DNA of 64,000 nucleotides from positions 64,001-128,000 of the forward strand of contig CAWJRG010000010.1 in assembly GCA_963845185.1 (NCBI GenBank), given 5' to 3'. The notes beneath the pieces were generated by a model. The model did not search any database, was not told where the DNA came from, and saw only the letters and a list, made by a program, of their open reading frames with translations. The translations under genes and the position numbers were made by a program. The DNA comes from an uncultured bacterium (GTDB lineage: Bacteria; Oederibacteriota; PGYV01; CAWJRG01). Below are positions 7,259 to 58,738 of this stretch, in pieces. The first letter of the stretch is position 1, and each line of letters begins with the position of its first letter.

Positions 7259-7469
7259 CTCCCTTAGATTTCGTTTACTTTGTCAAGCCGTCAACAGGCG
7301 ATGACAAAGTATTACGAAATCTTGTACCCGCTCCAGTCCGGACCGCAAGGTCCGGACAAGCGGTGCTTAACATCATGTTTTATTATTTATACTCCATGCT
7401 TTGCATGGACTTGTCGGAGTAATGATTTTGCTTCGCTGTTAACGCTCTCAAAATCAAACTCTGCCAAGC
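7259..7469. repeat. Modular stem-loop repeat, copy 1 (modules A+B+D), abutting the SD of the NCS2 permease gene
   Basis: A 7266-7322 (gatttcgtttactttgtcaagccgtcaacaggcgatgacaaagtattacgaaatc), B 7325-7366, D 7390-7469. Homologous to loci at 11.5, 17.7, 37.7, 41.0 and 58.5 kb. Confidence 0.85.
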
Positions 7470-7620
7470 TGCTCAGGTACAAAGGTCCCCAGGCCGAGAG
7501 TAAATAGTAAGATGGACTAGTTCCCATGAGTTATTTAATTTGAAATTGCCCCGAAGTACTGCTGTTTAACCGCGTCACTAAAATAGCAATCTAAAATGGA
7601 TTTCTACTTAATGCTGTTAA

Positions 7621-8367
7621 TTAGTGGTAATAAACCGTAAGTTTAGGATTTGTCGAGACTGAATAATTGTGATAGAAAGTTGCCCAGTTGGTTCCATATA
7701 ATTCGTTCTGTGCAACCAAAATAATACCAGAGTTCGTGAAAGAATTTGTTATCCACGAATTGACCATCGAGGCATTTAATGTAAAGGTTATTGTGTCTCC
7801 GCTGGCCAGGGCCGGGCCGGCATATACGGTATCGCTTTCAGGCGATGAAAAACTAAAATCCCCTCCGGGTGTCGACCATGTGCCGGAACTGTTATTTGTC
7901 CATGAAGCAGACCCTGCTTGGTAGGCAAGGCAAATCGTGCCTTCAGCCCATCCGTTTGTCAGCGGATAAGCGGTTATTGTTGCACCATTCCCGACTATCT
8001 GGTAAACGGTCAAGGTTAAATATGCCCTGGTCACAGTCACGTTTGTCGGGACAATTGCCGATAAATCAAATCCCATCAGCGTCCTCATCGACTGGTAGCC
8101 GGTAATGTTATCAACACCCATATAAATATACTGGCATCCGCCGGTAGTAAGGCTTGGGTCACCTGAAGAAATATATTCTGCGAGGTTGCCTGCATATGTA
8201 CTGTAAGGGGATATCCCGTCCTGAAAAAAAAGCACAGTATCGCCTGGGGCGCCTGCAGGTCCCGTAGAGCCTGCATTTCCGGTAGAATTGTTTGAGTTGA
8301 CACAGGAAATCATACATGCGGCAGAAACTGCTGAAAGGAGCAACAAGACTAAAAGATTTTTTTTCAT
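7621..8367 (-). CDS. Lipoprotein with DNRLRE-type beta-sandwich domain
   Basis: Lipoprotein signal, short G-X-Y stretch, FQDG..Y, RTLMGFDLS..VTRAYLTL and PKLTVYY motifs. Confidence 0.75.
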   Translation of the reverse strand: MKKNLLVLLLLSAVSAACMISCVNSNNSTGNAGSTGPAGAPGDTVLFFQDGISPYSTYAGNLAEYISSGDPSLTTGGCQYIYMGVDNITGYQSMRTLMGFDLSAIVPTNVTVTRAYLTLTVYQIVGNGATITAYPLTNGWAEGTICLAYQAGSASWTNNSSGTWSTPGGDFSFSSPESDTVYAGPALASGDTITFTLNASMVNSWITNSFTNSGIILVAQNELYGTNWATFYHNYSVSTNPKLTVYYH

Positions 8368-8400
8368 ATCGGCCTCCTCATCATAATAATCCCCGGCTAA

Positions 8401-10030
8401 CAGACTGTGTCATAAGTCTCCGTCCACAGCTGATTGCCGTAGGTAAATTAAAAAATCTACAAAATATCCTGTTTTATACAAAAAACCTGCGTGGCCCGAT
8501 GTTTCTTGCTATCCAAGCTGCGCAATCAACTCCCTGACACCTACAATGCTTATCATTCGAGCCATATTGAAACAACTTGTGAACAACGCCATCTCAGCTC
8601 TTGCTCCTTCAAGCCCTCGCAGCAGAAACCCGCTTACTCCAAGATTTCTTTTAATATGTCCGAACGGCAACTCTGCTTTCTCTTTTCTCAACTTGAAAAT
8701 ATCCTGCGATTCTTTTGTTTTATATTTTTCTTCAAGCAATATTTTTAGTTCTTCGTTTTTTAGCCTCTTTATCATTCTGCCCTTCGGAGACCGGGTGCAT
8801 ACTCCAAAGTTTTTACATTCTATACAAGCCTTTTCTTCAGTAGACCTATATACTTCAAGATTCTTTTTTTTATCAAAACTATGCCATGTCAATATCTGTC
8901 CTTCGGGACAAGTGTAGGTATCTTTCTCTGAATCGTATTGGAATTTATTTTTCCCAAACGGCCCGATGTCTTTTTTCTCTACCTGTTCCTGAGAAGGTAC
9001 TATTACATTTATGTCTTTGTCGTGTATCTTTTTCATTTCTTCTATGCTGGCATATCCGGCATCCCCACACGCATTTTTGCATTTGTTTTCAACTGTTTTC
9101 GCCGCTTCTTCAATCTGACTCCCGAATTGCTTGCGGTCATTGCTTTCGTTTACTACGTCGCTATGCACTATCAGTCCGTGTCTTTCATCTACCACTATCT
9201 GCCCGTTATATCCCGCATGCGTTCCCTGACGCCCTTTTACTTTCACGCATTCCTTGTCTGTCGTATTTATCGACTTTTTCCCCTCGTTCCTTATTTCTTC
9301 CATTACCTCTTTTATCTTTGCTTTTAATTTCTCTTTGCCTCTTAATTTTTCCTTCATCTTTACCAGTGATTCAGCGCCGCTTTCTTCCTCGTCTATCTTT
9401 TCGCTCTCCTTTATTATCGCTTCTATGTTTTCTTCTATCTTCTTTATCCTTTTTTCACACCGCTCCATTGTCCATGTGTTATTTATCGACGCGTTCGCCC
9501 TTATCTTGCTCCCGTCTACAAATAGCGTGTTTCCTTCTATCAATCCCAGTTTCATACACATCTTTGCGCTTTGTTTCATCACGTTTTTCAACATTTCCCG
9601 GTTGTCTTTTCGAAACCTTGCTATTGTTTTATGATCCGGCTTCAATCCTCCCAGCAGCCACATAAAAGACACATTATGATGCGTCGCTCTTTCCAGTTTT
9701 CTCGAACTTCGTGTCCCGTATGAATATCCGTATACCAGCAATTTTATCATAGCCTCAGGGTCGTATTCCGAATTTCCCATTTGCGTTTCATCTATTACTA
9801 TCCCAAGTTCTTCCATTTTCAACGCCTTTACGAACGCGTCGTACGCCCTTACAGGATCATCTTCCCCTACATATTCTTCTATGCTCTGCGGAAACATTGT
9901 CAACTGACTTCGGTCTCCATATCGGTATGCCATTTTTGTCTCCTTTTCTGATGTGTTTTCTGGAGACATTATACCATTTTTTATCTGTCAAATATCGTTT
10001 CAGACTACAAAAACATTATGACACAGTCTG
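8401..10030 (-). mobile_element. IS1182-family insertion sequence
   Basis: Perfect 15-bp terminal inverted repeats CAGACTGTGTCATAA (8401-8415) and TTATGACACAGTCTG (10016-10030), apparent TAA target duplication, single intact transposase. Confidence 0.93.
8509..9933 (-). CDS. IS1182-family DDE transposase
   Basis: YDPxxMIKLLVYGY..SSRKLE, PDHKTIARFR, VDGSKIRANAS, GDAGY, YTCPEG..C..C..C and AELPFGHIK motifs. AAGGAG RBS before ATG 9933. Confidence 0.95.
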   Translation of the reverse strand: MAYRYGDRSQLTMFPQSIEEYVGEDDPVRAYDAFVKALKMEELGIVIDETQMGNSEYDPEAMIKLLVYGYSYGTRSSRKLERATHHNVSFMWLLGGLKPDHKTIARFRKDNREMLKNVMKQSAKMCMKLGLIEGNTLFVDGSKIRANASINNTWTMERCEKRIKKIEENIEAIIKESEKIDEEESGAESLVKMKEKLRGKEKLKAKIKEVMEEIRNEGKKSINTTDKECVKVKGRQGTHAGYNGQIVVDERHGLIVHSDVVNESNDRKQFGSQIEEAAKTVENKCKNACGDAGYASIEEMKKIHDKDINVIVPSQEQVEKKDIGPFGKNKFQYDSEKDTYTCPEGQILTWHSFDKKKNLEVYRSTEEKACIECKNFGVCTRSPKGRMIKRLKNEELKILLEEKYKTKESQDIFKLRKEKAELPFGHIKRNLGVSGFLLRGLEGARAEMALFTSCFNMARMISIVGVRELIAQLG

Positions 10031-10050
10031 TAAAGCCGTGGTATACATAT

Positions 10051-10079
10051 ATTATATTATTTAAAAATTTATAAATCAA
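10051..10079 (-). promoter_or_regulatory. Host sigma70-type promoter now reading into the IS
   Basis: Minus strand TTGATT-N17-TATAAT just outside the IS end. Confidence 0.55.
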
Positions 10080-10130
10080 TAGGTTTTTTGCCTTTTTATG
10101 CGGCAAACCCTATAAAACCTATTTACTAAC

Positions 10131-10160
10131 ATATCGTTTGTTTTGTCAAACCGTCGCAAA
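10131..10160. repeat. Truncated module A of the stem-loop repeat family
   Basis: atatcgtttgttttgtcaaaccgtc matches the left arms at 11532 and 17680. Confidence 0.65.
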
Positions 10161-11522: not shown

Positions 11523-11691
11523 CCTCCCTTGATATCGTTTGTTTTGTCGAGCCGTCATTATGGCAGTCGAATAGTCCGGTGGACTATTTGACGGGTAGTT
11601 TCCATAAGCTATCATATAAAAGCTACCCAGCAAAACATTACAATATCATGTATCTCAAGTCCGAAGCCACCAGGCTGAAGACAAGCGGTAT
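11523..11691. repeat. Modular stem-loop repeat: module A with module C nested inside, plus module B
   Basis: A arms gatatcgtttgttttg...caaaacattacaatatc interrupted by C (11565-11628, near-identical to 58513-58576). B ends gacaagcggta. Confidence 0.85.
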
Positions 11692-16635: not shown

Positions 16636-17664
16636 TTAATCAAGCACCTCGATTTTCAAATCAGGCCTTTTGATGATTTCAAATTTCACGCCTGCTTCCC
16701 TGAATAAATCCTCGTACGTTTTGTCGGGATAGTAGCTGCTTGTGACAAACCTCTTTATCTTCGCGTTGACTGCCATCTTTGCGCATATTATACAAGGTGA
16801 ATGTGTGCAATAAATAGTCGCGCCATCGGTGCTGGTCCCGTGCAAAGCTGCCTGTATTATGGCGTTTTGCTCCGCATGTACCGCCCTGCATATTTCATGC
16901 CTTGTACCCGAAGCTATTCCTTCCTGATCGCGCAGGCAGCCCAGATCAATGCAGTCTTTTACGCCTGACGCAGCCCCGTTGTACCCCGAACTTATCAAAT
17001 GGTTGTTTTTCACTATTACAGCTCCCACGTGGTGTCTAAGGCACGTAGACCTTTCTGCAACCAAACATGCCATTTTCATAAAATATTCATCCCAGCTCGG
17101 CCTTGTGTATGGTTTATAATTTAATTCCTTCAATATTGCCTCGATTTTTCCGAAAAGCTCCACGGGCGTGCCGTTGTTTTCTATTTTATAATCTGCCTTT
17201 TCAAGGCAATTTGCGAGTTGTTGCGCCTTGTCGTCTGCAGAATTTTCTTTTTCTTCCTTTTTCTTGAATTCCTCAAGTGTTTCGCCGTCGCCTGGCCTTC
17301 CTCTTTTTTTCGCGCGCTCAAAACGTGTTTTTATGTCTGCCGTAACTCCTATCAGCTTAAAACTTTTCAGGTTCGCGCGCAGTTCCTCGATTTCATAAGG
17401 GTTCCTGATGCTGTCAATCGCGGCCTGGGGCGAATTTTTTATTTTGGTGACCGTCCTTTTAGCCAGCACCTGCGGGCCCTCCTTTTCCCTAAGTTCGTTG
17501 CCTATTGCTATCAGGTTGTCGCGCGTTGGGTCCAGCCCTCTTTTTTTCGCCTCGCCTCTTATGATGTCGGAAAGCGAAAAAGCGATAAATTTCTGCTTTT
17601 CAACAAGGTATTTTATTGCCTCGCCTTTTCCTGATGCGTTTGGTCCTGTGAATCCTAAAAACAT
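16636..17664 (-). CDS. Fusion of a P-loop nucleotide-kinase-like domain and a dCMP deaminase
   Basis: N-terminal GPNASGKG and [10 protein letters not shown]-terminal [24 protein letters not shown] and PCIIC. Confidence 0.92.
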
Positions 17665-17671
17665 GTTTAGT

Positions 17672-17777
17672 CTCCTTAGATATCGTTTGTTTTGTCAAGC
17701 TTACTGACGCAGACAAAACATTACGCGATCTTATACCCGCTCGAGTCTGAGGCCATCAGGCCGAAGACAAGCGGTAT
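17672..17777. repeat. Modular stem-loop repeat (A+B) abutting the SD of the kinase-dCMP deaminase gene
   Basis: ctccttagatatcgtttgttttgtcaagc...gacaaaacattacg...tacccgctcgagtc...gacaagcggtat; fills nearly the whole intergenic gap. Confidence 0.88.
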
Positions 17778-17787
17778 TAGTAAAAAT

Positions 17788-18594
17788 TTATTTTTTTAAT
17801 ACTTTATTTATTATCGTCAGCCCGCCGAAAATCACGGTTGCGGTCACCACTATTGTGGCTCCTGACGCAAGATTAAAAGCATATGAAAAAATAAATCCTG
17901 TTATTGTAGAAATTATACTTATTATAACCGATAAAACAAGCAATTTTTTAAAATCATTTGTTAACAAAAGCGCCGAGGAAACCGGTATTATAAGGAATGC
18001 AACCGCAAGTATTATGCCCACTATCTTAATGGACGCCACTATTGTCACGGAAATAAGCGTCAACAGCATAAAATATATGAAATCCGTGTTAATCCCCGCT
18101 ATTCTTGCGCCTTCCTCGTCAAAAGAAAAAAACAAAAGTTCCTTGAAAAAGACATAAATTGTCGCGAGCACTACAACGCTTATGATAATTATCGTTATGA
18201 CATCACTTTCGCTCACCGCCAGTATGTCGCCGAACAAATAGCCGAATATGTCGGCGTTGTAGTTTTTGTTAAATCCGACAAATATAACTCCAAGCGCCAT
18301 GGTAAACGCGAAAAATATTCCTATAAGTGCGTCTTCTGATGTCCTTGTGGCTTTTTTCGATATGCCGATAAGCATCGCGACGATCCAAGCGAAAACAATG
18401 GCGGCTAACGAAGTATTCATGCCGAGCAAAAGTCCCAGGGCAATACCGCCGAATGCGGAATGCGCTATGCCGTCGCCTATAAATGACATTTTCTTCAGTA
18501 CAACGTAAACGCCTATAACGGCAAGCAGGGACCCGGAAACTATGCCTGCAACAAGCGCTCTCTGCACAAAACCGTAGTGAAATATATCAATCAT
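17788..18594 (-). CDS. znuB: Zn/Mn ABC transporter permease
   Basis: GDGIAHSAFGG, YLFGDILAV and SFDEE motifs. Confidence 0.9.
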   Translation of the reverse strand: MIDIFHYGFVQRALVAGIVSGSLLAVIGVYVVLKKMSFIGDGIAHSAFGGIALGLLLGMNTSLAAIVFAWIVAMLIGISKKATRTSEDALIGIFFAFTMALGVIFVGFNKNYNADIFGYLFGDILAVSESDVITIIIISVVVLATIYVFFKELLFFSFDEEGARIAGINTDFIYFMLLTLISVTIVASIKIVGIILAVAFLIIPVSSALLLTNDFKKLLVLSVIISIISTITGFIFSYAFNLASGATIVVTATVIFGGLTIINKVLKK

Positions 18595-18632
18595 GTAAAA
18601 CACCTGTCTTGCTTTTAAAATCCAAAATATTT

Positions 18633-35103: not shown

Positions 35104-36486
35104 CTATTTAAGCTTTTTTATCAATACCGCAGCTTGTGCCAGCTGGTTTTTGACTGATTTTGGGGAAGTCGAGCCTGATGTGGCTTTTGCATTCAGCGAC
35201 ACCGCAGGTTCCATGACTCCATATATGTCTTTTTCAAAAAGTTTTGAGAATTTTTTGAATTCATACAGGAACATGTCTGAAAACTGCCTTTTCCCGACCA
35301 GGCAAAAAGAAACTATATTCCCTGTTATTTCATGAGCCTGCCTGAAAGGCACGCCTTTTTTTACAAGGTAATCTGCTATGTCAACTGCGTACATAAAGGA
35401 ATCCTTTGCCTGCAGCATCATTTTTTCCTTTTTTAATTTTATATTTGCCAGCAATTTGCTAAAAATGTGCAGCGAGCTTTTTATTTCGTTTATACTTTTG
35501 AAAAGCAAGGGTTTGTCTTCCTGCATGTCTTTATTGTAGGCAAGCGGAAGTGCCTTTAGCATGGTCAGTGCAGCTATAAGGTTGCCGTAAAAAACGCCTG
35601 TCTTGCCCCTGATGAGCTCGGCTATATCCGGATTTTTCTTATGCGGCATTATAGAAGAGCCTGTGGCAAAAGCATCGTCAATTTCGATAAACCCGAACTC
35701 GCTTGAGTTGAAAATGATTATCTCCTCGCAAAAACGGGACAGGTGCATTGCTGCCAGGGACGCGAAATACAGGAAGTCAAGCAGGAAATCCCTGTCCGAA
35801 ACCGCGTCCATGCTGTTTTTTGAAATTTTTGCAAAGCCAAGCAGCCTTGCCGTATATTCCCTGTCGAGTTTATAGTTTACACCCGCGAGCGCGCCAGAAC
35901 CCAGCGGCATCGAGTCCGTCATTTTTTCCGTGAATTCGAGCATCTCATAATCCCTGGCGAACATAAAAAAATAGCTCATCAGCCACTGCGCAGCTGATAC
36001 AACCTGCGCATGCTGCATATGCGTGTAAGACGGCATCCAGATGCTCACGTTCTTCTTTGCCAATGCAACTATTGCAGATAAAACTTCCTTCAGGTTATTT
36101 TTTACAGCCTTTATTTCTTCTTTCAGATAAAGGCGAGTATCAGTCGCAACAAGGTCGTTCCTGCTCCTTGCCGTATGTATTTTTTTGCCAGTGTCTTTGG
36201 CAACCTTCACAAGCTCGCCTTCAACCGCTGAATGCACGTCCTCATATTTTGAAAAATCGATTTTTTTCTCGCTTTTCAGCACCTTTTTGAGTCCTGCGCT
36301 TATAATCGCCAGTTCTTTCGCACTTATGATCCCTGCTTTCGCCAGCGTCTTCGCATGCGCCATGCCTGTAAGTACGTCGTATTTAAAAAGGCACCTATCA
36401 AATGAAATGGAAGCGTTAAAAGCTTCCGCGTCTTTATCCATCTCTTTTTTAAACCTTCCTTGCCAGACTTTTTTGTCTTTAGGCAT
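35104..36486 (-). CDS. argH: Argininosuccinate lyase
   Basis: WQGRF, HTARSRND, TGSSIMPHKKNPD and PLAYNKDMQEDK motifs. Confidence 0.97.
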   Translation of the reverse strand: MPKDKKVWQGRFKKEMDKDAEAFNASISFDRCLFKYDVLTGMAHAKTLAKAGIISAKELAIISAGLKKVLKSEKKIDFSKYEDVHSAVEGELVKVAKDTGKKIHTARSRNDLVATDTRLYLKEEIKAVKNNLKEVLSAIVALAKKNVSIWMPSYTHMQHAQVVSAAQWLMSYFFMFARDYEMLEFTEKMTDSMPLGSGALAGVNYKLDREYTARLLGFAKISKNSMDAVSDRDFLLDFLYFASLAAMHLSRFCEEIIIFNSSEFGFIEIDDAFATGSSIMPHKKNPDIAELIRGKTGVFYGNLIAALTMLKALPLAYNKDMQEDKPLLFKSINEIKSSLHIFSKLLANIKLKKEKMMLQAKDSFMYAVDIADYLVKKGVPFRQAHEITGNIVSFCLVGKRQFSDMFLYEFKKFSKLFEKDIYGVMEPAVSLNAKATSGSTSPKSVKNQLAQAAVLIKKLK

Positions 36487-36496
36487 ATTGCACCGC

Positions 36497-37711
36497 CTAT
36501 TTTTTCTTTTTATTTTTTACCTGATTGTAAATTTTCATTTGCAGGCCGAAGAGATTGATGAAGCCCTCTGCGTCCTTTTGCGAATAAACCTTGTCATTTT
36601 CAAAAGTCGCGTAATCCTGGCTGTACATGGAAAAAGGCGAGCTTTTCCCCGCCGGGAAAACATTGCCCTTAAAAAGTTTCAGCTTTACATCGCCTGTAAC
36701 CATCTCCTGCGTCTTGTCGATAAAAGCCGACAGCGCCTCGCGCAAAGGCGAGTACCACATGCCGTTATAAATCAGTTCGCCGAATTTTAACGCGACCTGC
36801 TGTTTGTAGTGCCTTGTCTCGCGGTCAAGTACTATTTCCTCAAGCTCCCTGTGTGCCGTATACAATAAAGTGCCTCCCGGCGTCTCATAAACCCCGCGGG
36901 ACTTTATACCCACGAGCCTGTTTTCAACCATATCGGCATAACCTATGGCGTGCAAAGCCCCTGTTTTATTCAGCGCTGCCATTAAATCAATCGGTTTTAA
37001 TTTTTTGCCGTTTACTGCGAAAGGTATCCCTTCCTTAAAGCTTATTGTCACATATTCCTCGGTATCCGGCGCCTTTTTTATTGTGTTTATCTTGCTTAAG
37101 ATATCCTCGGGCGGCTCATTTGCCGGATCCTCGAGTATCCCGCCCTCATGAGAAATGTGCAAAAGATTATCGTCTTCCGAATAAGGCTTTTCTTTAGTGA
37201 CAGACACTTCAATATTATGCGCCTTCGCGTACTCTATTTCCTCTGTCCTGGATTTTATGTCCCACTCCCTCCATGGAGCGATAATTTTCAGGTCAGGCGC
37301 CAGCGCTTTATACGTTAATTCAAACCTAACCTGGTCATTGCCCTTGCCCGTAGCGCCATGGCAAACGGCGTCTGCTTTTTCTTTCCTAGCTATATCGACC
37401 TGCGCTTTTGCGATTAATGGCCTTGCTATGGACGTGCCCATAAGGTACTTGTCCTCATAAACGGCACCGGACTTTATCATCGGGTAAATGAAGTCCGTGA
37501 TAAATTCCTGCTTTACATCGGCTACGTACGCCTTGTCAGCGCCGCTTTTTAAAGCTTTTTCCTGCACTTTGTCAAAATCACCGGCCTGGCCAACGTCAAC
37601 CGCGCAGGCAATAACCTTGCATTTATAATTCTCCTTGAGCCACGGCACTATGACCGAGGTGTCAAGCCCGCCTGAATAGGCGAGAACAACCTTTTTTATG
37701 TTTTTATCCAT
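36497..37711 (-). CDS. argG: Argininosuccinate synthase
   Basis: [24 protein letters not shown] and [16 protein letters not shown] motifs. Confidence 0.98.
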
Positions 37712-37718
37712 TTTTGTT

Positions 37719-37825
37719 CTCCTTAGAGTCCGTTGATTTTGCCGAGCGTCAACAGCGAAGGCAAAATTTTACGGAATCTTATACCCGCTCAAGTCCGAGG
37801 CCTTCAGGCCGAGGACAAGTGGTAC
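37719..37825. repeat. Modular stem-loop repeat (A+B) abutting the argG SD, inside the arg operon
   Basis: ctccttagagtccgttgattttgccgagcgtcaacagcgaaggcaaaattttacggaatc followed by tacccgctcaagtcc...ggacaagtggtac. Confidence 0.88.
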
Positions 37826-37898
37826 TATGTTATCATTTATTATTCAATCCAAAATTCTTACACTTCGCACTCATCACTTAACACTTAACACGCATATA

Positions 37899-38837
37899 TC
37901 ATCTGTTCATTAGCAATGCCAAAATTCCCTTTTGCGCATGCAGCCTGTTTTCCGCCTGATCAAAAACAACGGAATTCGGCCCATCCATGACTTCATCTGT
38001 GATTTCCTCGCCCCTGTGTGCAGGCAGGCAATGCATTATTATGCAGTCATGTTTTGCTTTTTTGATAAGAGACATATTTACCTGGTATTTTTCAAATTCC
38101 TTTTTCCTAGCTGTTGCTTCCCCTTCCATGCCCATACTTGCCCAGACATCAGTATATATAACATCTGCGTCTTTCACTGCCTCTTCGGCATTGTCGGTAA
38201 TTATTAATTTTACCTTGTTCTGTCCGGCTATTGCTTTTGCTTTTTCAACAACACTTTTATCCGGCATGTATTTTGCCGGAGACCCGACCATTAGGTTCAT
38301 TTCCATTTTTGGCGCGGCAAAAAGCCATGAATTGCACACGTTGTTGCCGTCGCCGACATACGCCACGGTCAAACCCTGTAAAATTTTCTTCTTGTCTTTT
38401 ATAGTCATAAGGTCTGATATTATCTGGCACGGATGCGAAAAATCCGTAAGCCCGTTAATAACCGGTACTGTGGCGTTTTCAGCCAGCGTTACGACTTCCT
38501 TATGCTCAAATGTCCTTATCATTATGCCATCCACATACCTAGACAGCACCTTTGCCGTATCTGATATTGTCTCTCCCCTGCCGAGTTGTAATTCGCCCGC
38601 GCCCATATAAAGCGCCGCGCCTCCAAGCTGGAACATGGCTATTTCAAAAGAAACCCTTGTACGTGTCGATGGTTTCCTAAAAATCATGGCAAGCGCCTTG
38701 CCGAGCAGCGGTACAAAAAGTTCCTTTTTCTTGTGTTTTGCCCTTATCATGTCCGCGACGTTCAAAATAAGCTCTATTTCCTCTTTTGTCAGGTCCTCTA
38801 TTGAAATTATATCCTTCTTGCTGAGTTTCGTAATCAT
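37899..38837 (-). CDS. argF: Ornithine carbamoyltransferase
   Basis: PSTRTR, HPCQ, DVWASMG and HCLP motifs. GGAGG RBS before ATG 38837. Confidence 0.97.
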   Translation of the reverse strand: MITKLSKKDIISIEDLTKEEIELILNVADMIRAKHKKKELFVPLLGKALAMIFRKPSTRTRVSFEIAMFQLGGAALYMGAGELQLGRGETISDTAKVLSRYVDGIMIRTFEHKEVVTLAENATVPVINGLTDFSHPCQIISDLMTIKDKKKILQGLTVAYVGDGNNVCNSWLFAAPKMEMNLMVGSPAKYMPDKSVVEKAKAIAGQNKVKLIITDNAEEAVKDADVIYTDVWASMGMEGEATARKKEFEKYQVNMSLIKKAKHDCIIMHCLPAHRGEEITDEVMDGPNSVVFDQAENRLHAQKGILALLMNR

Positions 38838-38911
38838 CTTAAAATCCTCCATTCGGTATTCGGCATTTGTTATTTCAATCCAAATCCAAAATTTAAATTT
38901 TTTTTATTCCG

Positions 38912-40078
38912 CTATTTCAATATTTCCGCAAGTATTCTTACGGCTTTTATAATGTCTTCCTTTTTTAAGACAAGAGGCGGCACAATCCTTATCAGGTTGG
39001 GTTTAGGGCTATTTAAAAGAAGGCCCTTTTTTAGAGCTTCTTTTACAACCCCATCGGCTGTGCCTTTCAGTTCTATGCCTATAAGAAAACCTTTGCCCCT
39101 TATTTCTTTTATTTTATCCGATTTTATCTTTTTCAACTCGTTAATAAAATATTTCCCTTTTTCTTCCACACTTTTGAGGAATCCGGCATTAGAAATTTTT
39201 TTAATCACTACATTTCCGGCTGCACATGCCACTGGGTTTCCTCCTAAAGTCGTGCCGTGGTCTCCTAGTGAAAAAATATCCTCGAATTTTTTTGATACAA
39301 TTACAGCAGAAAGCGGGAACCCGCCGCCCAGCCCCTTGCCTATTGTCATAATATCGGGTGTAACTCCAAATCCCTGATAAGCAAAAAGACTGCCCGTCCT
39401 GCCTAATCCGGTCTGTATTTCGTCAAAAATCAGAATTACTTTTTTGTCAACGCATAGTTTGCGCAATTGTTTTAAGAATGTCTTATCTGCTACATATACC
39501 CCGCCTTCGGCCTGTATAGGCTCTATAAGCACAGCAACGGTTTTGGAATCGATTTTCTTTTTTGCGTCTTTGATGTTGTTAAATTCAGCATAAACAAACC
39601 CCGGTGATAACGGCTTTAGGAATTTATGAAATTTTTCCTGAGCCGTGGCAGTCAGGGCTGCTATGGTCCTGCCGTGAAAAGAGTTATAAAATGTAATTAT
39701 TTTATACGCGCCTTTTTTATTCAGTATTCCCCACTTCCTCGCGAGTTTTATTGCCACCTCGTTTGCCTCAGCGCCTGAATTGACGTAATAAACCTGGGTT
39801 CCGAAGGTTTTCTTAACCAGTTGCTTTGTCAGCCCTGTTTGGTGTTCATTATAAAACAAGCGCGAAATATGGATATATTTATCCACCTGTTTTTTTACCG
39901 CCTTATTGATATCAGGGTCGTTATAGCCCAGGACATTGACCGCTACCCCGGCAAGCAAATCAATATATTGTTTGCCATTGCTGTCCGCAAGAATTGCGCC
40001 TTTGCCTTTTTCCGGTTTCATGTCGTAAACTTTTACTGTATTATCCAGTCCTTTTTGCATTTTTTCTTCCTCTTTCAT
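38912..40078 (-). CDS. argD: Acetylornithine aminotransferase
   Basis: NSGAEANE, SFHGRT, DEIQTGLGRTG, GKGLGGG and HGTTLGGNP motifs; arg operon context. Confidence 0.93.
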   Translation of the reverse strand: MKEEEKMQKGLDNTVKVYDMKPEKGKGAILADSNGKQYIDLLAGVAVNVLGYNDPDINKAVKKQVDKYIHISRLFYNEHQTGLTKQLVKKTFGTQVYYVNSGAEANEVAIKLARKWGILNKKGAYKIITFYNSFHGRTIAALTATAQEKFHKFLKPLSPGFVYAEFNNIKDAKKKIDSKTVAVLIEPIQAEGGVYVADKTFLKQLRKLCVDKKVILIFDEIQTGLGRTGSLFAYQGFGVTPDIMTIGKGLGGGFPLSAVIVSKKFEDIFSLGDHGTTLGGNPVACAAGNVVIKKISNAGFLKSVEEKGKYFINELKKIKSDKIKEIRGKGFLIGIELKGTADGVVKEALKKGLLLNSPKPNLIRIVPPLVLKKEDIIKAVRILAEILK

Positions 40079-40112
40079 TTTCAGTTTTTCGTGCGTACAT
40101 CTAATCTTGTAT

Positions 40113-40961
40113 TTACTTTATTATTTCCGTACCTATGCCTTCCTTTGTAAATATTTCAAGCAGTAAAGAATGTTCTATCCTTCCGTTTATGATATGCACT
40201 TTTTTTACTCCTGCCTCCACAGCCTTCTTGGCCGATAAAATTTTCGGCAGCATCCCTCCTGTAATCTGTCCTGATTTTATGTGCTTGCTTATGTCTTTTA
40301 TTTTTATTGTTTGCACGTATTTGCCTTTTATCTTTACGCCGTCTGTGTCTGTCACGTAAATTAATTTATCCGCTTTTACGGCTATAGCAACTTCAGCAGC
40401 AGCCGTATCAGCATTAATATTGTAGCCGTTGCCTTGCTCATCGACGCCTATAGGCGCGATAACCGGTACAAAATTCTTGCTGTCAAGCGTCTCCAGAATT
40501 TCCGTGTTCACCTTCTTGACTTCTCCGACAAATCCAATATCTATTTTCCCGTACTTTTTCTTTTGAGCAAGCAGCAGGTTCCCGTCTTTGCCCGACATGC
40601 CTATTGCCTTAAGCCCGTGCGAATTTATGTTCTTCACTATTTCCTTGTTTACCTTGCCCGTCAATACCATTTCAACTATTTCCAGCGTTTCCTTGTCGGT
40701 CACCCTGTGACCATGGACGAAAACCGGCTTCTTGCCGAGTTTTTCTATGAGCTTATTTATATCGTCGCCTCCGCCGTGCACTATTATAAGCTTTACACCG
40801 ACGTATTTTAAAAGGGCTATATCTCCAACAAACGGCTCTTTGAATTTATTATCCGTCATCGCGCTGCCGCCATACTTAATCACAAAAGTAGCACCGGTGA
40901 AGTTCTTTATGTACGGCAAAGCCTCTATAAGTACCCTTGCCTTTTGTATATATTGTTCCAT
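40113..40961 (-). CDS. argB: Acetylglutamate kinase
   Basis: EALPYI, IKYGG, VHGGG, NINAD and GGMLPK motifs. Confidence 0.97.
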   Translation of the reverse strand: MEQYIQKARVLIEALPYIKNFTGATFVIKYGGSAMTDNKFKEPFVGDIALLKYVGVKLIIVHGGGDDINKLIEKLGKKPVFVHGHRVTDKETLEIVEMVLTGKVNKEIVKNINSHGLKAIGMSGKDGNLLLAQKKKYGKIDIGFVGEVKKVNTEILETLDSKNFVPVIAPIGVDEQGNGYNINADTAAAEVAIAVKADKLIYVTDTDGVKIKGKYVQTIKIKDISKHIKSGQITGGMLPKILSAKKAVEAGVKKVHIINGRIEHSLLLEIFTKEGIGTEIIK

Positions 40962-40967
40962 GTCATT

Positions 40968-41031
40968 CTCCCTAGCTGTCGTTTGTTTTGTCAAGCTTAC
41001 TGCGCAAGTTAAAACTACTCCGAAGCGGTAT
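40968..41031. repeat. Internally deleted modular repeat (left arm of A fused to the end of B) abutting the argB SD
   Basis: ctccctagctgtcgtttgttttgtcaagcttactgcgc...aagcggtat, compared with 17672-17777. Confidence 0.75.
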
Positions 41032-41299
41032 TAAAACTGTTGTAAAAATATTATATCGGTTTAAACAGCCTAATCTTTAGCAGTTGCTACGGCTGCTCTT
41101 TCAATATTCAAATGGCTTTTCCAATAAAAAGTCATATTTCGTAGGCCAAAACCTCCGGATTTAAAAGAAAAAGTGAATAAAGTATATCATAATTTAGTCT
41201 TATTTTTCAATATTATTCACACATTATTCGTTTTTAATTGAAAATTTAGTATTTCCCATTTCAAATAATTAGGTCATTGTAAAGTAACCTAAAAATTCC

Positions 41300-41328
41300 T
41301 TGACTTAAAATTTCATTAATGATATTAT
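41300..41328 (+). promoter_or_regulatory. Probable promoter of the 6S RNA-rny operon
   Basis: TTGACT-N17-TATTAT. Confidence 0.55.
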
Positions 41329-41376
41329 CCAAACGGATGAATGTTATTAGATATTAAAGCACAGGAAAAAACTAAA

Positions 41377-41557
41377 AAATCCCTGCTGTGCCCGTGTAGA
41401 AGCAAACGTTTTGGCCCAACACTTTTTTGAACGGGAGCTGGGCTTATATGTGGTGTGCATGCCTCATAACGAGGAAGCCTAAAACATATAACAAGGCACC
41501 CACCTGTTTGGAAAGGGCCCAAAATAATGCTTCCCACGGCACTTGGCGGGGTTATTT
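41377..41557 (+). ncRNA. ssrS: 6S RNA
   Basis: About 180-nt rod: CCCTGCTGTGCCCGTG pairs with CACGGCACTTGGCGGGG, TTTTGGCCC with GGGCCCAAAA, central bubble with CCAACAC and CACCCACCTG. Located upstream of rny, a known 6S context. Confidence 0.85.
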
Positions 41558-41560
41558 CTA

Positions 41561-41748
41561 TAATGGACGGAGAGAGATAACTTGATAAAAATGACAATAT
41601 TATATATAAAAAATCTAAACTATCCGGATTTAACAGTGGGGAGGCCCATATATTTTCATCCAGCCTCGAAACCTGGAAACACCGCTGTTAAAAATATGAT
41701 ATATTGTCATTTCAATTCTCTATTATCCTAACCTCTCCCCTCTGTTAG
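41561..41748 (+). ncRNA. Second rod-shaped structured RNA or rny leader (6S-like architecture)
   Basis: Nested inverted repeats 41589-41600/41701-41712, 41629-41639/41682-41692, 41641-41645/41663-41667 and an outer GA-rich/CT-rich stem. Confidence 0.45.
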
Positions 41749-53857: not shown

Positions 53858-56800
53858 TTAATGGATTATGAATATTATGCCTGTCAATAATATATTGGAA
53901 TTTAATTTGATTACGTAATAATACACTCCCGGCGATACCAGGCCTCCGTATGAATTCCTGCCGTTCCAGTACACATTTGGCGTTTGTCCCGTCAATGAAA
54001 TTACCAGCTCGCCTGATATTGTGTAAATCTGTATGTCTGCGCCTATTGGCAGGTTGATGATTTTCAACTCCCTTCCTGCTGCTTTATTGAGATTAAACGG
54101 GTTGGGGTAAACAATAATATCGCCGTTTGCGTAAGGCGTGGGGGTTATTGTTATTGTAGGCGATATTGTTGAAGTGGGTGTTATGCTTGGCGTGGGTGTT
54201 TGTGTCAGAGTAATTGTATCGGTCGGTGAAATTGTGTAAGTCGGTGTCCCTGTAAATGTTTCTGTTATGGTTAATGTTGCTGTATCAGTATCCGTAATTG
54301 TAAAGGTCGGCGTTATGGTATAAGTCGCTGTGTTTGTACTTGTCGTTGTAAACGTAGGCGTTGATGTGCTTGTATTTGTTTCTGTCGCCGTAGGTGTGGC
54401 GGTTTTAGTTATGGTTTCCGTTGGCGTAGCCGTTGCCGATGAAGTCGGCGTAGGGCTTGCGCATGCGCCGAATTCTTCGATTCTGTTATTCCAATCATCT
54501 GCAACATATACGTTTCCGCTGCTGTCCACTGCTATTCCTTCAGGAGAACTAAACTGCCCGTTGCCGTTTCCAGTACTACCCCACTGGGTAATATATGTTC
54601 CTGTACTGCTGAATTCCTGGATTCTGCTATTTCCCCAGTCTACAACATAGACGTTTCCAGTGCTATCTACTGCCACTCCAGAAGGCCCATTAAACTGACC
54701 GGGGCTGTTTCCATAACTGCCCCATTGTGTTATATAAGTGCCTGTACTGCTGAATTCCTGCATCCTATTATTCAAATGGTCTGAAACGTAAACATTCCCG
54801 CTGCTATCTACTGCTATTCCTCCAGGCCCATTAAACTGCCCGTTGCCGCTTCCTAAATTTCCCCATTGTGTAATATATGCGCCTGCGCTATTGAATTCCT
54901 GGATCCTGTTATTACCCGTGTCTGCCACATACACGTTCCCGCTGCTGTCTACTGCTATTCCATAAGGTTGATTAAACTGCCCGTTACTGCAAGACGGACA
55001 TATTCCTAAACTACCCCATTGCGTTATATATGTGCCTGTACTGCTAAATTCTTGGATTCTGTCAGTGCCAGTATCTGCAACATAAACATCCCCACTGCTG
55101 TTTACTGCTATTCCTGAAGGACCAGAAAACTGGCCATTGCCGCTTCCGGCACCACCCCATTTGGTTATATATGTGCCCGTACTGCTAAATTCTTGGATTC
55201 TGTAATTAGAAGTATCCGTTACATACACATTCCCGCTGCTGTTTACTGCTATTCCATAAAGACCTTGAAACTGCCCATTGCCGGTTCCATTACTGCCCCA
55301 TGCAGTAATAAAACAAGACGTAGGCCCGGATGTTAAGGTGGCAGTATATGTCGGCGTAATCGTGAACGTGTTTGTAGGCGACACTGCAGGCGTTGGCGTC
55401 AAAGTCGGCGTCTCTGTTGGCGTATTAGTGCTTATTTCAGTTGCCGTGGCACTCAGCACGGTGCATGTGACGCTCGCTGTAGGTGTGCTTGTTCCGGTTG
55501 ACGTAGCAATAAGCACGGTGCACGTGGCACTCGTAGTCACCGTCGGGCTTGTGCACGCGCCGAATTCTTCTATTCTGTCATTACCCTCGTCGACAACATA
55601 AACGTCCCCGCTGCTGTCTACTGCTACTGCTTCAGGAAAAGAAAATTGCCCGTTGCCGGTTCCGGTACTACCCCATTGTGTTATATATGTGCCTGTGCTG
55701 CTGAATTCCTGTATCCTGTTATTGCCGTATTCCGAAACATACACGTTTCCGCTGCTGTCTACTGCTATTCCCCAGGGATAATTAAACTGCCCGGGATTGC
55801 TTCCGGTACTACCCCATTGTGTTATATATGTGCCTGTACTGCTGAATTCCTGGATTCTGTTATTATCAGTATCGGGAACATACACGTCCCCGCTGCTGTT
55901 TACTGCTATTCCCCATGGATTCCAAAACTGCCCGTTGCCGTTTCCAAAATTGCCCCATTGCGTTATGTATGTGCCTGTACTATTAAATTCTTCGATTCTG
56001 CTATTGCCTTGGTCCACGACATACACGTTTCCGCTGCTGTCTATTGCCACTCCATGAGGAGCATTTAACTGCCCGTTGCCAGCTCCATAACTTCCCCATT
56101 GTGCTATATACGTGCCTGTGCTGCTGAATTCCTGTATCCTGTTGCTCCATACGTCTGTAACATACACGTTTCCGCTGCTGTCCACTGCTATTCCTTGAGG
56201 ATTTAAAAACTGCCCATTACCGCTTCCATTACTTCCCCATTGCGTGATATATGCGCCTGTACTGCTGAATTCCTGGATTCTGTTATTATACAAATCTACA
56301 ACATACACATTTCCGCTGTTATCTATTGCTATTCCATAAGGATCATCAAACTGCCCGTTGCCTGCGGTTGCTCCACAACATCCATAACTGCCCCATTGCG
56401 TTATATAACACGGCGTTGGCCCTGAAACCAGAGTGGCAGTATATGTCGGTGTAATCGTTGATGTGTTTGTAGGCGACAGGAAAGGCGTCGGCGTGCTTGT
56501 AGGCGTGAGACATAATACCATGATCCACGGTCCCATTGAGGTTATTGGGCAAGTTATGGAACTATCGGGCGACGATTCAACATTATAAGAATCACCGAAT
56601 TCAACTGGGCACGGTGCGACAGGCGCAGCGGCTCCCGGTCCTCCCCCGCTTTTATCACCGTAATTTATTGTTATCTGTCCTGTATTCGCCGCAAGATTAC
56701 TCACCTCTACTATTATATCCTGTCCGCTTACGTTTTCGCTTATAATTGAACCGCTGTTCACAACAACCGTAAAATATCCGGGGTCGGTTGGCACAATGCT

Positions 56801-58495
56801 TGGCGGGCTCCATCCGGCGCGAAGGGTTATTTTCAGCGTTCCGTACCCTGGCGAACTCGCCCATGTTGTCGGCCCTGAAGTATAAGTAAACACAAGCGTA
56901 TTGCCCGTGCTTCCCGAATAAACAAATGTTGGATTTACAACAGCGCTCCCCTCGCCTGTACATACTGTGATAGTTTGGGTTGGGGTGCAGGTAAAAGTCA
57001 ATGTTGCAGTACTGGAAAAAGTGGGTGTTATTGTCGGAATTTGCATTATCACAGATCCGCATGTTACAGGGGTGGCGGTTATTAACCCAAAAATCGCGTC
57101 TATCCCGCTTGCCTGCTCGTAAAAACTCACGGTTCCCGTTCCGATACAGTTATATACCCATGTGAATTGCAGGCCTGTTCCCGGCATTATAGCTGCGCTT
57201 GCAGGATTTGGCCCGCTCGCCAGGGACACGCTTGACGCATCACCCTCGGCAATGGCTGAAGCCTGCACATTGCTTGCCGTATTGCCGCCGATATTGCTTA
57301 CACTTATTATAACGGTTATGTTTTGCCCCACGCTTACAGGGCTTGCCAATGATGTGCAATTTATTACCAGGTTCGCCATAGGCGGTTGTATCGTCACAAC
57401 ATTGCTCGAGCATAAAGTCGAAACATTTGCCCCGCTGTTCGCGTCAGTTCCCTGCGCACCCCCGCTGAAAGTTTTATTACCCATCCCTGTCGCTGTATAT
57501 ATCCATGTAAAAGCAGTTGCCGAACCGCCGAATATGGCTGCGGAAGCAGGCGATGGCCCGGCAACTATGACCACGTTTCCGGTTCCTGATAAATTGAAGG
57601 GGAAAGGCATCACGATGATTGCGGCAGCCTGCCCGATATTTGTCACGGTCATTATCACGGTTATCATCCCGTTGATACTTACAGGGTCAGGCATCGCGTC
57701 AATCCCGCAAATCAAAGAAGCAGGATACTGGATTGTAACCATATTGCTTGTCGGTGTATTGCCCGTTATTGTCATCCCGCTGTTCGCGTCCGTTCCTGAT
57801 GCGCTTGCCGTGCAAATTATATTCCCTGCGCCGCCAGCCGAATAAGTCCATGTAAAATATGCCACGGTTGAGCCTGTTATTGTCTGGCACGAAGGGCTTG
57901 AAATTAATACTGCATTGCCTATACCCGTTATAGCAGGGTTTGAAGCGCACACGTTATTTGCGTTTGTCTGGCCCGTATTTGTTACGGTCATTATCAATGT
58001 TATATACTGCCCGATGCTGGCCATGGAAGGCATCGCGGATAAACCTGCAGCCAGGCTCGCAGGGGTTTGTGCAGTTACTGTTGCTGTCGCAGGCTGGGAG
58101 CAAACAGTGCTGCAATCCAAAACCGATATATAAATACTTCCGGCACAGGTCGCGGTATAAACCCATGAAAATGTCCCGCTGTTCCCTGCTGTTATTGTCA
58201 AGCTGGCAGGAGAAGGGGACGTTAACATAATTGTGCAGCCGGTGCCGCTCACGATGGGTGGATTGGGCGTTACGGAATCCGCATCCTGGTCTCCGGTATT
58301 TGTTACGGTATTTATTAAGGTAAAATCCTGCCCCAAAGAAACCACGGAAGGCACTGCGCTTACGTCTGATTGCAGGACAGGCAGGGCAAAGGCGGGAGAA
58401 TATATGAAAACAGGCAGAAAAAAAATAATAAAATGCAATAATTTTTTTATTCTTATCCCCTGTAATTTTTTGGAATTTAAGGCGTACCCGAACAT
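53858..58495 (-). CDS. Large secreted surface protein: Ig-like repeats, two NHL six-bladed beta-propellers, Thr/Pro linkers, FlgD/T9SS-like C-terminal domain
   Basis: Four repeats like VSxGQxITVIMTVTNxG...FTWxYxA, two sets of six ~47-aa WGSxGxGNGQFxxPxGIAVDSSGNVYVxDxxNNRIQEF repeats, C-terminal VYPNP...IYTISGELV...WNGRN...GVY. Confidence 0.9.
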   Translation of the reverse strand: MFGYALNSKKLQGIRIKKLLHFIIFFLPVFIYSPAFALPVLQSDVSAVPSVVSLGQDFTLINTVTNTGDQDADSVTPNPPIVSGTGCTIMLTSPSPASLTITAGNSGTFSWVYTATCAGSIYISVLDCSTVCSQPATATVTAQTPASLAAGLSAMPSMASIGQYITLIMTVTNTGQTNANNVCASNPAITGIGNAVLISSPSCQTITGSTVAYFTWTYSAGGAGNIICTASASGTDANSGMTITGNTPTSNMVTIQYPASLICGIDAMPDPVSINGMITVIMTVTNIGQAAAIIVMPFPFNLSGTGNVVIVAGPSPASAAIFGGSATAFTWIYTATGMGNKTFSGGAQGTDANSGANVSTLCSSNVVTIQPPMANLVINCTSLASPVSVGQNITVIISVSNIGGNTASNVQASAIAEGDASSVSLASGPNPASAAIMPGTGLQFTWVYNCIGTGTVSFYEQASGIDAIFGLITATPVTCGSVIMQIPTITPTFSSTATLTFTCTPTQTITVCTGEGSAVVNPTFVYSGSTGNTLVFTYTSGPTTWASSPGYGTLKITLRAGWSPPSIVPTDPGYFTVVVNSGSIISENVSGQDIIVEVSNLAANTGQITINYGDKSGGGPGAAAPVAPCPVEFGDSYNVESSPDSSITCPITSMGPWIMVLCLTPTSTPTPFLSPTNTSTITPTYTATLVSGPTPCYITQWGSYGCCGATAGNGQFDDPYGIAIDNSGNVYVVDLYNNRIQEFSSTGAYITQWGSNGSGNGQFLNPQGIAVDSSGNVYVTDVWSNRIQEFSSTGTYIAQWGSYGAGNGQLNAPHGVAIDSSGNVYVVDQGNSRIEEFNSTGTYITQWGNFGNGNGQFWNPWGIAVNSSGDVYVPDTDNNRIQEFSSTGTYITQWGSTGSNPGQFNYPWGIAVDSSGNVYVSEYGNNRIQEFSSTGTYITQWGSTGTGNGQFSFPEAVAVDSSGDVYVVDEGNDRIEEFGACTSPTVTTSATCTVLIATSTGTSTPTASVTCTVLSATATEISTNTPTETPTLTPTPAVSPTNTFTITPTYTATLTSGPTSCFITAWGSNGTGNGQFQGLYGIAVNSSGNVYVTDTSNYRIQEFSSTGTYITKWGGAGSGNGQFSGPSGIAVNSSGDVYVADTGTDRIQEFSSTGTYITQWGSLGICPSCSNGQFNQPYGIAVDSSGNVYVADTGNNRIQEFNSAGAYITQWGNLGSGNGQFNGPGGIAVDSSGNVYVSDHLNNRMQEFSSTGTYITQWGSYGNSPGQFNGPSGVAVDSTGNVYVVDWGNSRIQEFSSTGTYITQWGSTGNGNGQFSSPEGIAVDSSGNVYVADDWNNRIEEFGACASPTPTSSATATPTETITKTATPTATETNTSTSTPTFTTTSTNTATYTITPTFTITDTDTATLTITETFTGTPTYTISPTDTITLTQTPTPSITPTSTISPTITITPTPYANGDIIVYPNPFNLNKAAGRELKIINLPIGADIQIYTISGELVISLTGQTPNVYWNGRNSYGGLVSPGVYYYVIKLNSNILLTGIIFIIH

Positions 58496-58504
58496 TCCTT
58501 TTAA

Positions 58505-58738
58505 CCTCCCTTAGTCAAATAGTCCTGTGGACTATTTGACGGGTAGTCTCCATAAGTCATTTAGTAAAAACTACCCTGAGTTTACTTTGCCAAGACGTCA
58601 ACAGGCAATAAAAAGCATTCATTACTCCATGCTTCGCATGGACTTGACAGAGTAATGATTTTGCTTCGCTGTTGACGCTTGCAAAATCAAACTCTGTCAA
58701 GCCGCTCCAGTCCCGAGCCTGCGAGGGACAAGAGGTGT
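58505..58738. repeat. Modular stem-loop repeat (C+A+D+B) in the 5' UTR of the NHL surface protein, abutting its SD
   Basis: C 58513-58576, degenerate A about 58580-58620, D 58623-58702 (nearly identical to 7390-7469), B 58701-58738. Confidence 0.88.

Follow-up and report, generated by a model that had tools for sequence, protein, structure and literature searches.

Two-hairpin repeat units abut the ribosome-binding sites of many unrelated genes in an uncultured Oederibacteriota bacterium

Why does one small structured repeat end, in copy after copy, directly against the Shine-Dalgarno (SD) sequences of unrelated genes? The question is raised by a window of 64,000 nucleotides (nt) from an uncultured bacterium of the Oederibacteriota (assembly GCA_963845185.1, contig CAWJRG010000010.1, positions 64,001 to 128,000), in which seven loci share hairpin modules. 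These loci belong to a lineage-specific family of ~100-nt two-hairpin units, whose fold, copy number, placement, orientation and range are established below. The explanation we favour, with a probability of about 0.5, is a mobile structured element, non-autonomous and specific in its orientation, which would land directly 5′ of GGAG and then form part of the mRNA leader. The window's own genome (G000) comprises 3.50 Mb in 11 contigs and is 99.4% complete. Its contigs are denoted by C and a number, and positions without a contig refer to the window.

The canonical unit (A+B, ~100 nt) consists of hairpin A followed by hairpin B, with the SD counted outside. Hairpin A is conserved in sequence and composed of RYACCGCTTGTC, a variable GC-rich tip, and GACTTGAGCGGGTR. 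The linker AAGAT leads to hairpin B, which features an outer stem of ~7 bp, a conserved internal loop (GTAAT / AAAC), and an inner stem (nnTTTGyC / GrCAAAnn) topped by a small apical hairpin. At its 3′ end the unit reads ...ATC(T)AA(G), which in gene-adjacent copies runs on as (T)AAGGAG or AAGGGAGG. Of two loop motifs named in a sequence-only reading of the window, GTCAACA does belong to an apical part, being the reverse complement of that of hairpin B, while GACAAGCGGTA is in fact the reverse complement of the hairpin A 5′ arm and not a loop.

The fold is supported by covariation, as that reading had supposed. A covariance model, R1, was built without the SD from 60 aligned canonical copies, the best 60 of 70 full-length copies (10 left out; mean column identity 75%). 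RNAalifold returned two hairpins, with compensating changes in 13 of 23 pairs. For a 28-pair structure, 94.1% of the cells in the 60 copies are paired, compared with 85.0% in shuffled alignments, and 166 double-change cells stand against 57.9 in shuffles, none of 500 of which reached the observed value. Sliding the partners by 1-3 columns left only 32-43% paired. Two column pairs of hairpin A (6/40 and 7/39) have poor pairing support and probably form an internal loop. The picture recurs in 37 units from nine related genomes, in an alignment that was fitted to the model and leans towards the structure: 94.2% of cells are paired vs 71.4% in shuffles (0/500 as high), and 23 of 28 pairs show double changes. 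In the outer stem of hairpin B, all seven pairs vary among these related units, with three or four pair types each. Hairpin B thus keeps its shape while its stems vary by compensating substitutions, whereas hairpin A is nearly invariant in sequence. One U.G pair is retained in 58 of 60 copies, and the relatives have 18 U.G and 11 C-G pairs at this position. Since U.G would be a C.A mismatch on the other strand, the sense strand is favoured as the folding strand. The fold is conserved across several families of the order.

A covariance-model scan, as the sequence-only reading had suggested, yielded at least 148 R1 matches in the genome, a lower bound because 150 of ~2039 first-look candidates were scored. 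BLAST with the seven loci gave 146 clusters, on 7 of the 11 contigs. Profile searches with nhmmer found 119 matches of hairpin A, 133 of hairpin B, and 178 of the whole unit, 70 of which are full length. When all matches are merged, 175 composite loci result, covering 19,975 nt in all. Given this copy number, the tandem, nested and truncated forms, and the position before genes of many functions, the unit is not a metabolite riboswitch, in line with the earlier argument.

In the window, all seven proposed loci are present where they had been placed, every one on the minus strand and built on one common ~100-nt unit, with R1 E-values of 1e-19 to 1e-22 for the window copies. Three of them contain extra modules, termed module C (~63 nt) and module D (~80 nt).

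7258..7470, minus strand: composite copy with module D (~7391-7470), an AT-rich 5′ extension (7367-7390), and a canonical A+B unit (7267-7366)
10131..10160, minus strand: truncated copy, hairpin B 3′ arm only (TTTGACAAAACAAACGATAT), without SD
11523..11691, minus strand: A+B unit with module C nested in the hairpin B apex, ending in AAGGGAGG (11530-11523)
17672..17777, minus strand: canonical A+B unit (17679-17777) plus TAAGGAG (17678-17672), from sequence and R1
37719..37825, minus strand: canonical A+B unit (37726-37825) plus TAAGGAG (37725-37719), from sequence and R1
40968..41031, minus strand: copy with truncated hairpin A and intact 3′ half of hairpin B, ending in AGGGAG (40973-40968)
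58505..58738, minus strand: composite copy with hairpin A, module D, a partial hairpin B, and module C, from sequence and module models

Five of these loci lead into a gene, with the start codon 5-9 nt past the SD; the five junctions quoted by the sequence-only reading are confirmed by sequence and the downstream genes by Pfam. The unit at 7267-7366 (R1 match C10:71267-71366, E 5.6e-20) is followed by TAAGGGAGG (7266-7258) and the ATG (7251) of a permease (Xan_ur_permease). The copy at 17672 precedes the ATG (17664) of a kinase/dCMP-deaminase fusion (AAA_17 + dCMP_cyt_deam), and the copy at 37719 that of argG (ATG 37711, ArgG). The copy at 40968 is followed by argB (ATG 40961, AA_kinase). The copy at 58505 ends in TAAGGGAGG (58513-58505) and leads into a 1545-aa NHL-repeat protein (ATG 58495). 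Two copies lie inside apparent operons, as had been noted: one sits between the co-oriented genes for an ABC-3 permease (17788-18603) and the kinase-deaminase, the other between an argF-like OTCace gene (37899-38852) and argG. The SD-like end of the copy at 11523 indeed lacks an adjacent usable start codon, and an ATG 24 nt further on opens only five codons. Predicted leader folds reach −56 kcal/mol (z −7.2) for the copy at 7258..7470, −42.8 kcal/mol (z −5.1) for that at 17672..17777, and −37.8 kcal/mol (z −2.8) for that at 37719..37825.

Two neighbours of window copies may be recorded here. About 90 nt from the truncated repeat at 10131-10160 lies an IS1182-like insertion sequence of ~1.65 kb (8388-10042), with an open reading frame (ORF) on the minus strand (8509-9969; DUF772 + DDE_Tnp_1_6) and roughly 15-17 copies in the genome. 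A 6S RNA gene (41377-41556, plus strand, Rfam 111 bits) is found ~350 nt from the argB leader, on the opposite strand.

The placement seen in the window holds for the genome. Gene positions were taken from two independent proxies, a mechanical start-codon/ORF rule and our own codon-usage gene caller, which yields 2762 genes at 88% coding. By the former, 88 of 133 hairpin B 3′ ends have an ATG, GTG or TTG opening at least 60 codons within 3-35 nt. Of the complete 3′ ends, 62 of 105 have a predicted same-strand start 10-18 nt ahead (mode 15), compared with 1164 of 19,146 random intergenic positions (6.1%). A same-strand start lies at most 25 nt downstream of 109 of the 175 composites. We refer to these 109 genes as element genes and compare them with the 2653 other genes. 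Among the 99 gene-adjacent composites that have a co-oriented upstream gene, the stop codon of that gene falls within 30 nt of the element in 30. The downstream genes are as unrelated across the genome as the five in the window had suggested: among 40 drawn at random from the 109, window genes excluded, 32 have a Pfam family and all 32 families differ. They include an ATP synthase alpha/beta-family subunit, a NuoB-like subunit, GcvH, PhoU, GH5, GH2, a solute-binding protein, and a PyrB-like protein. A signal peptide is predicted for 39 of the 109 element genes and 791 of the 2653 others, a small difference. The promoter signal within or just ahead of the units is weak: a −10-like box (at least 5/6) stands 3-10 nt before 29 of 157 copies, the figures being 17 of 157 when the search interval is shifted and 253 of 3000 at random sites. 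Ahead of the argG copy, a promoter-like site was not detected.

The genes of this genome show an extreme strand bias: ~92% of those predicted follow the majority strand of their region. Two switches in the bias, one around 700-800 kb of C9 and one around 700-850 kb of C10, probably mark the replication origin and terminus. Composites run against the local majority strand in 14 of 164 scorable cases, like genes (201 of 2488), and 6 of these 14 sit at most 22 nt before a minority-strand gene. The orientation of the unit therefore follows the gene and not the replication strand.

Units also occur in mosaic forms. On C9 a tandem array of seven units (C9:916538-917152, minus strand) has a 100-nt period and the junction ATCAAG|TACC. 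It lies between ORFs of 166 and 1100 aa, and the last of its units passes into a divergent variant of hairpin B. Module C comprises two small hairpins and has 61 matches in the genome, including ~11560-11625 and 58514-58576 of the window. Most of its copies sit inside the tip of hairpin A or hairpin B. The module always comes after TTGyC and has TTTGAC as its end, and a few terminal copies directly adjoin TAAGGGAGG themselves. Module C behaves like a second element that targets hairpin tips. Module D has 14 matches. Some units end in a recurrent tail, AGTTTTCAATTTTCAAT, and not in an SD (C1:208374, C5:32928, C5:35396, C9:656516, C9:671570, C9:676678), and another group ends in GGGATGGAGCGTATTAAGAAA; both tails are further modules of the mosaic.

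How far does the family reach? R1 matches were found in 11 of 24 genomes of the order and in none of 75 genomes from other orders of the phylum. The window's genome, with its at least 148 matches, is followed by G014 with 17-18, G023 with 6, G001 with 4, and G003 and G019 with 3 each; the others hold 1-2. Of the three full units in G001, two close with TAATGGAGG or TAAGGAGG before an ATG, as in the window's genome. The exact hairpin A signature occurs at 11 loci in genome contigs, six of them in metagenome-assembled genomes (MAGs) labelled candidate division FCPU426 and five in two MAGs labelled just "uncultured bacterium" or "bacterium". The closest relatives by ArgG are labelled either "uncultured Spirochaetia" or FCPU426. 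The signature had no match in viral contigs, and a first pattern scan of genome contigs gave one match, in a Pirellulaceae genome, at about chance level.

A different form of the unit is found in a sister family, f10, where none of 26 units touches an SD. In 22 of the 26, a hairpin of at least −10 kcal/mol strength lies within 55 nt downstream, usually past a run of A, and in 15 a −10-like box ends 3-10 nt upstream, eight of these boxes being TATTAT or TATCAT at a distance of exactly 3 nt from the first base. Of the long ORFs on either side, typically both run on the opposite strand, with one ending 53-72 nt past the unit and one starting 85-130 nt before it. One f10 locus has three tandem units between opposite-strand genes. 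The geometry of the A-run and T-run better suits a terminator of the opposite-strand gene, and TATAAT can also be read on the opposite strand. We lean towards free-standing small-RNA genes that would share a bidirectional terminator. Alternatively, the units may represent repeats that were inserted in antisense just behind a neighbouring gene's terminator. We prefer the former because subsets share extended upstream similarity and the box stands at a fixed distance.

The repeat was then compared with known classes. Rfam at the gathering threshold gave only 6S RNA and two tRNAs in the whole window; with E up to 1, four copies from the window's genome and five loci of relatives gave chance-level microRNA and small-RNA matches, none at family threshold. 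A known RNA family is therefore ruled out at both settings, a comparison the sequence-only reading had called for. No target-site duplication was detected for k = 2-5 at all offsets in 82 complete copies compared with permuted partners, the maxima being 12 matches for k = 2 and at most 6 of 82 for longer k. Terminal inverted repeats are absent as well, as the consensus ends RYACCGCTTGTC... and ...AAACGnnATC(T)AAG are not reverse complementary; the inverted repeats of the unit are internal and form two separate hairpins. Together, these two absences rule out a MITE (miniature inverted-repeat transposable element), a derivative of DDE transposons. An integron attC array was rejected on the distribution of copies, on 7 of 11 contigs between core genes; the integron integrase was not specifically sought. 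REP/RAYT elements and IS200/IS605 PATEs were rejected on the absence of Y1 and TnpB from the genome. With REP2/CREN-like elements the repeat shares the position directly 5′ of ORFs, a ribosome-binding site (RBS) at the 3′ end, two internal stem-loops, and the lack of terminal inverted repeats, and it has neither promoter nor ATG of its own.

The genome does contain other mobile elements. Seven IS110-family genes are present, none adjoining units, and four elements are identical (C1:322287-323574, C5:335571-336901, C9:329611-330917, C10:445091-446421). Three of these four are inserted in a different short palindromic repeat, CCCTCTCCC...GGGAGAGG, which suggests a second REP-like family used as an IS110 target. 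Outside the window, a group II intron with a reverse transcriptase (RT) ORF (Rfam group-II-D1D4-6 and Intron_gpII) has six identical copies: C9:699923-701880 (+), C9:811158-813108 (−), C9:845001-846949 (−), C10:383306-385246 (−), C10:831364-833311 (+), and C11:61512-63462 (−). It always lies directly after GGAGG-n5/6-ATGA, that is, 3′ of the start codon of an SD-bearing gene. With its 3′ end, ...AAAGGAGGTTATAAAAGATGTCTACTCAC|AAAAAA, it supplies an SD of its own together with an ATG that is in frame with the lipoprotein-like ORF (MKK...) it interrupts. In one case, the gene that hosts the intron copy has a repeat unit as its leader. R1 has no match near the IS110 loci and only one near the intron copies. 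Across the 24 genomes of the order, Y1 occurs in 15, IS110 in 5, and RT in 2, and none of them tracks the unit, with the exception that RT and the repeat burst coincide in the window's genome. The Y1_Tnp-domain proteins of the 15 genomes, to which the window's genome does not belong, have 320-376 aa and are far longer than a typical IS200 TnpA.

Against this background, we postulate that the unit was amplified in the genome as a non-autonomous mobile element. It would insert in one orientation, directly 5′ of the GGAG core of an SD, so that the host gene keeps an intact promoter, SD, spacer, and start codon, and would be transcribed within the 5′ leader or intercistronic RNA. We infer its mobility, target rule, transcription and any effect on mRNA, with insertion read from the pattern of copies only. 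The two hairpins may close on themselves and leave the SD single-stranded, and the unit would be a tolerated passenger that probably also serves as a stable 5′ or intercistronic mRNA structure. By analogy with known 5′ stem-loops, REP, and ERIC, a stabilising or processing role of the hairpins is plausible. The conserved hairpin A may be recognised by a copying machinery or by a trans-acting factor. The ancestral form was seemingly a free-standing small structured RNA unit, as in the sister family. In predicted folds, the SD is unpaired in the minimum-energy structures of two of three window leaders; in the third, at 17655-17778, the minimum-energy and centroid structures pair it with a downstream segment. 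Predicted SD accessibility is 0.499 for element genes (n=98) and 0.484 for other SD genes (n=150; p=0.76), neither raised nor lowered, which fits the harmless-passenger reading. That the element keeps the SD open was not supported, given the same equality with controls.

Whether the unit targets the SD or carries it, the two options of the sequence-only reading, can be approached at its 3′ boundary. The boundaries are sharp: information content is high through +8 and gone by +9, the 5′ signal is gone by −3, beyond an A-rich stretch, and the similarity among copies ends before the start codon. After gene-adjacent 3′ ends, GGAG or GAGG is present in 60 of 64 cases, compared with 8 of 31 for the other ends, several of these eight being in fact broken or short genes. 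Gene-less copies and tandem junctions retain only TAA or AAG, and in relatives TAA follows the stem also without an SD. The nearest element-free orthologous argG site, from a MAG at 74% ArgG identity, reads AAGGAGagaacaaaATG / TAAaaataagaaaaaatttcAAGGAGagaacaaaATG, compared with TAAGGAGaacaaaaATG at argG of the window's genome; it has the same SD and a similar spacer as argG after the unit. On balance, targeting is mildly favoured over carrying.

Several findings weigh against the mobile-element reading. No mobilising enzyme was found among the Y1, TnpB, IS110, and group II intron candidates examined in the genome. Y1_Tnp (PF01797) had no match in this nearly complete assembly, with positive controls in 6 of 14 reference genomes, and TnpB (PF07282) had none either. 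The IS110 copies sit in other palindromes and have ends unrelated to the unit, and the group II intron inserts after ATGA and not before the SD. A pair of filled and empty sites was not found: a metagenome scan with ArgG gave nothing above 73% identity, and the four nearest argG loci lack an R1 match. For positions 36000-41600 of the window, one DNA data set (share 0.09) contributed short contigs with neither joints nor an empty site, and no RNA data set was listed. TAAGGAG occurs in 29.4% and AAGGGAG in 18.3% of the 109 element genes, compared with 3.1% and 1.5% of the 2653 others, an enrichment of ~10x at the element. The form of the tail also tracks the outer-stem sub-family, with TAAGGAG in 11 of 13 CGGACTC copies and AAGGGAGG in 6 of 11 CGAAATC copies. 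Finally, conservation across families would also be expected of a functional RNA with a role in the host.

The heptamer enrichment and its association with outer-stem sub-families speak for a portable ribosome-binding cassette, in which, as in Neisseria REP2, the mobile unit includes the SD and replaces the native one when copied. Dozens of genes would then share one leader and one SD type. The information content through +8, which covers the SD, and the presence of GGAG in 101 of 109 element genes vs 1312 of 2653 others point the same way, and REP2 and the Borrelia IR are described as carrying promoter, RBS, and ATG directly 5′ of ORFs (PMC3184786). The enrichment would, however, also arise where the TAA or AAG end of the element meets a target GGAG. 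Moreover, 23 of 31 well-conserved copies that are not gene-adjacent lack GGAG or GAGG after (T)AA(G), tandem junctions retain AAG only, the similarity never extends to the start codon, and the −10-like box is confined to the minority of copies given above. We consider such a cassette unlikely. Similarly doubtful is a post-transcriptional regulon with decoys, in which hairpin A binds a trans-acting protein or RNA that governs the translation or decay of the ~100 leader-bearing mRNAs, and free-standing units and tandem arrays titrate it as small RNAs in the manner of CsrA/CsrB. It would account for a nearly invariant hairpin A beside covarying stems of hairpin B, for the seven-unit array and a three-unit array in G014, and for sister-family units that resemble independent transcription units. 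Hairpin B stops within 0-3 nt of the SD, where a bound factor would obstruct the 30S subunit, as at translational operators in general. Yet a candidate factor was not found, the downstream genes have no common function, and truncated, nested, and gene-less copies are typical of selfish repeats. Leader copies with which a decoy could compete were not found in the sister family either, and a copying mechanism would still be needed.

Copying could in principle proceed through RNA, if the unit were a small RNA that is reverse-transcribed, for example by the group II intron RT, and its cDNA integrated at ribosome-binding regions. The strictly oriented insertion without terminal inverted repeats or target-site duplication is consistent with this route, as are an ancestral form that resembles a small-RNA gene and an intron that itself recognises GGAGG-n5/6-ATGA sites. 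RT is present in only 2 of 24 genomes of the order, and the burst genome holds the six identical intron copies. This is a coincidence in a single genome, however, and G014 has its 17-18 units and no RT. The intron's insertion point behind the start codon does not match that of the unit, and the copies have no poly-A or other cDNA hallmark and do not start at a fixed distance from a promoter. We regard RNA-mediated spread as very improbable. A bolder version of the mobile-element reading, which we put forward as speculation with low odds, is that a small structured RNA gene turned into a mobile unit with the RBS as its landing site, maybe via GGAG, and that ~100 mRNAs now share a leader recognisable by a protein or an RNA, with free-standing units and tandem arrays as decoys. 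If true, bacterial mobile elements would gain a new class of target site, and the genome would possess a translational regulon ready-made at genome scale.

Dispersed repeats of small size are commonly regarded as junk that lands randomly between genes or after terminators. The present copies are mostly in one orientation and a fixed few bases from the start codons of ~100 unrelated genes. If this placement reflects target choice, it would define a new kind of safe landing site, between promoter and RBS. If the unit acts on mRNA, many genes of one genome could come under a common leader, and perhaps common control, at the same time, which would be a natural counterpart of the insulating leader parts of synthetic biology.

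Among known systems, the MIRU of Mycobacterium tuberculosis are oriented intercistronic operon repeats of 40-100 bp, in register with the translation signals of the flanking genes; they are tandem direct repeats with small overlapping ORFs, unlike a two-hairpin unit that adjoins an SD. PATEs and REP/RAYT (REPIN) elements resemble the present unit in that they are non-autonomous, form hairpins, cause no target-site duplication, and insert in a strand- or orientation-specific manner beside a short target. Their defining Y1 HUH transposase is, however, absent from the window's genome and present in 15 of the order's 24 genomes, some of them from families that lack the repeat, and the present unit is much longer than REP. 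Both BOX of Streptococcus pneumoniae and ERIC/IRU of enterobacteria are intergenic, modular or hairpin-forming, and present in ~100 or more copies, and both are reported to be co-transcribed with their neighbours and to have orientation-dependent effects on mRNA stability (BOX, PMC3049150; ERIC, De Gregorio 2005 via PMC2229807). Neither a fixed SD junction nor a strictly sense orientation ahead of start codons is known to have been described for them. Terminal inverted repeats are a feature of ERIC, whereas the present unit has none. A second analogue in placement is given by the TAACTGA heptamers of marine Beggiatoaceae, which, as reported, form 169 repeat sets, mostly "forward" and a few nt from start codons (PMC4679880). 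These 7-nt tandem repeats are unstructured and either overlap the RBS or take its place, and the majority of the genes concerned have no SD, whereas the present unit is a folded 100-nt element that stops at a canonical SD.

Our literature searches turned up no paper describing the present repeat family, and a 2024 MITE review (PMC10969869) leaves ribosome-binding sites, Shine-Dalgarno sequences, untranslated regions, and start codons unmentioned. The closest likeness, as judged from descriptions, is to REP2 (CREN) and the IR-A/IR-B repeats of Borrelia plasmids, dispersed intergenic repeats of 120-180 bp (Delihas 2011, PMC3184786). As described there, these share with our unit the absence of terminal inverted repeats, two internal stem-loops, the position directly 5′ of ORFs, and an RBS at the 3′ end, and their mode of spread is likewise given as unexplained (PMC3184786). 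REP2 and IR are described as carrying a promoter and an ATG, whereas the similarity of the present repeat stops at the SD and a −10-like box is found in a minority of copies. Where 23-26 copies are listed for REP2, the present genome holds about six times more. In contrast to the REP2 and IR elements as described, the fold of our unit covaries across several families of an order, free-standing copies exist, and modules are nested in hairpin tips. The repeat thus apparently represents an undescribed family of a kind that is rare but known, with REP2/CREN and the Borrelia IR as its nearest, loosely comparable counterparts.

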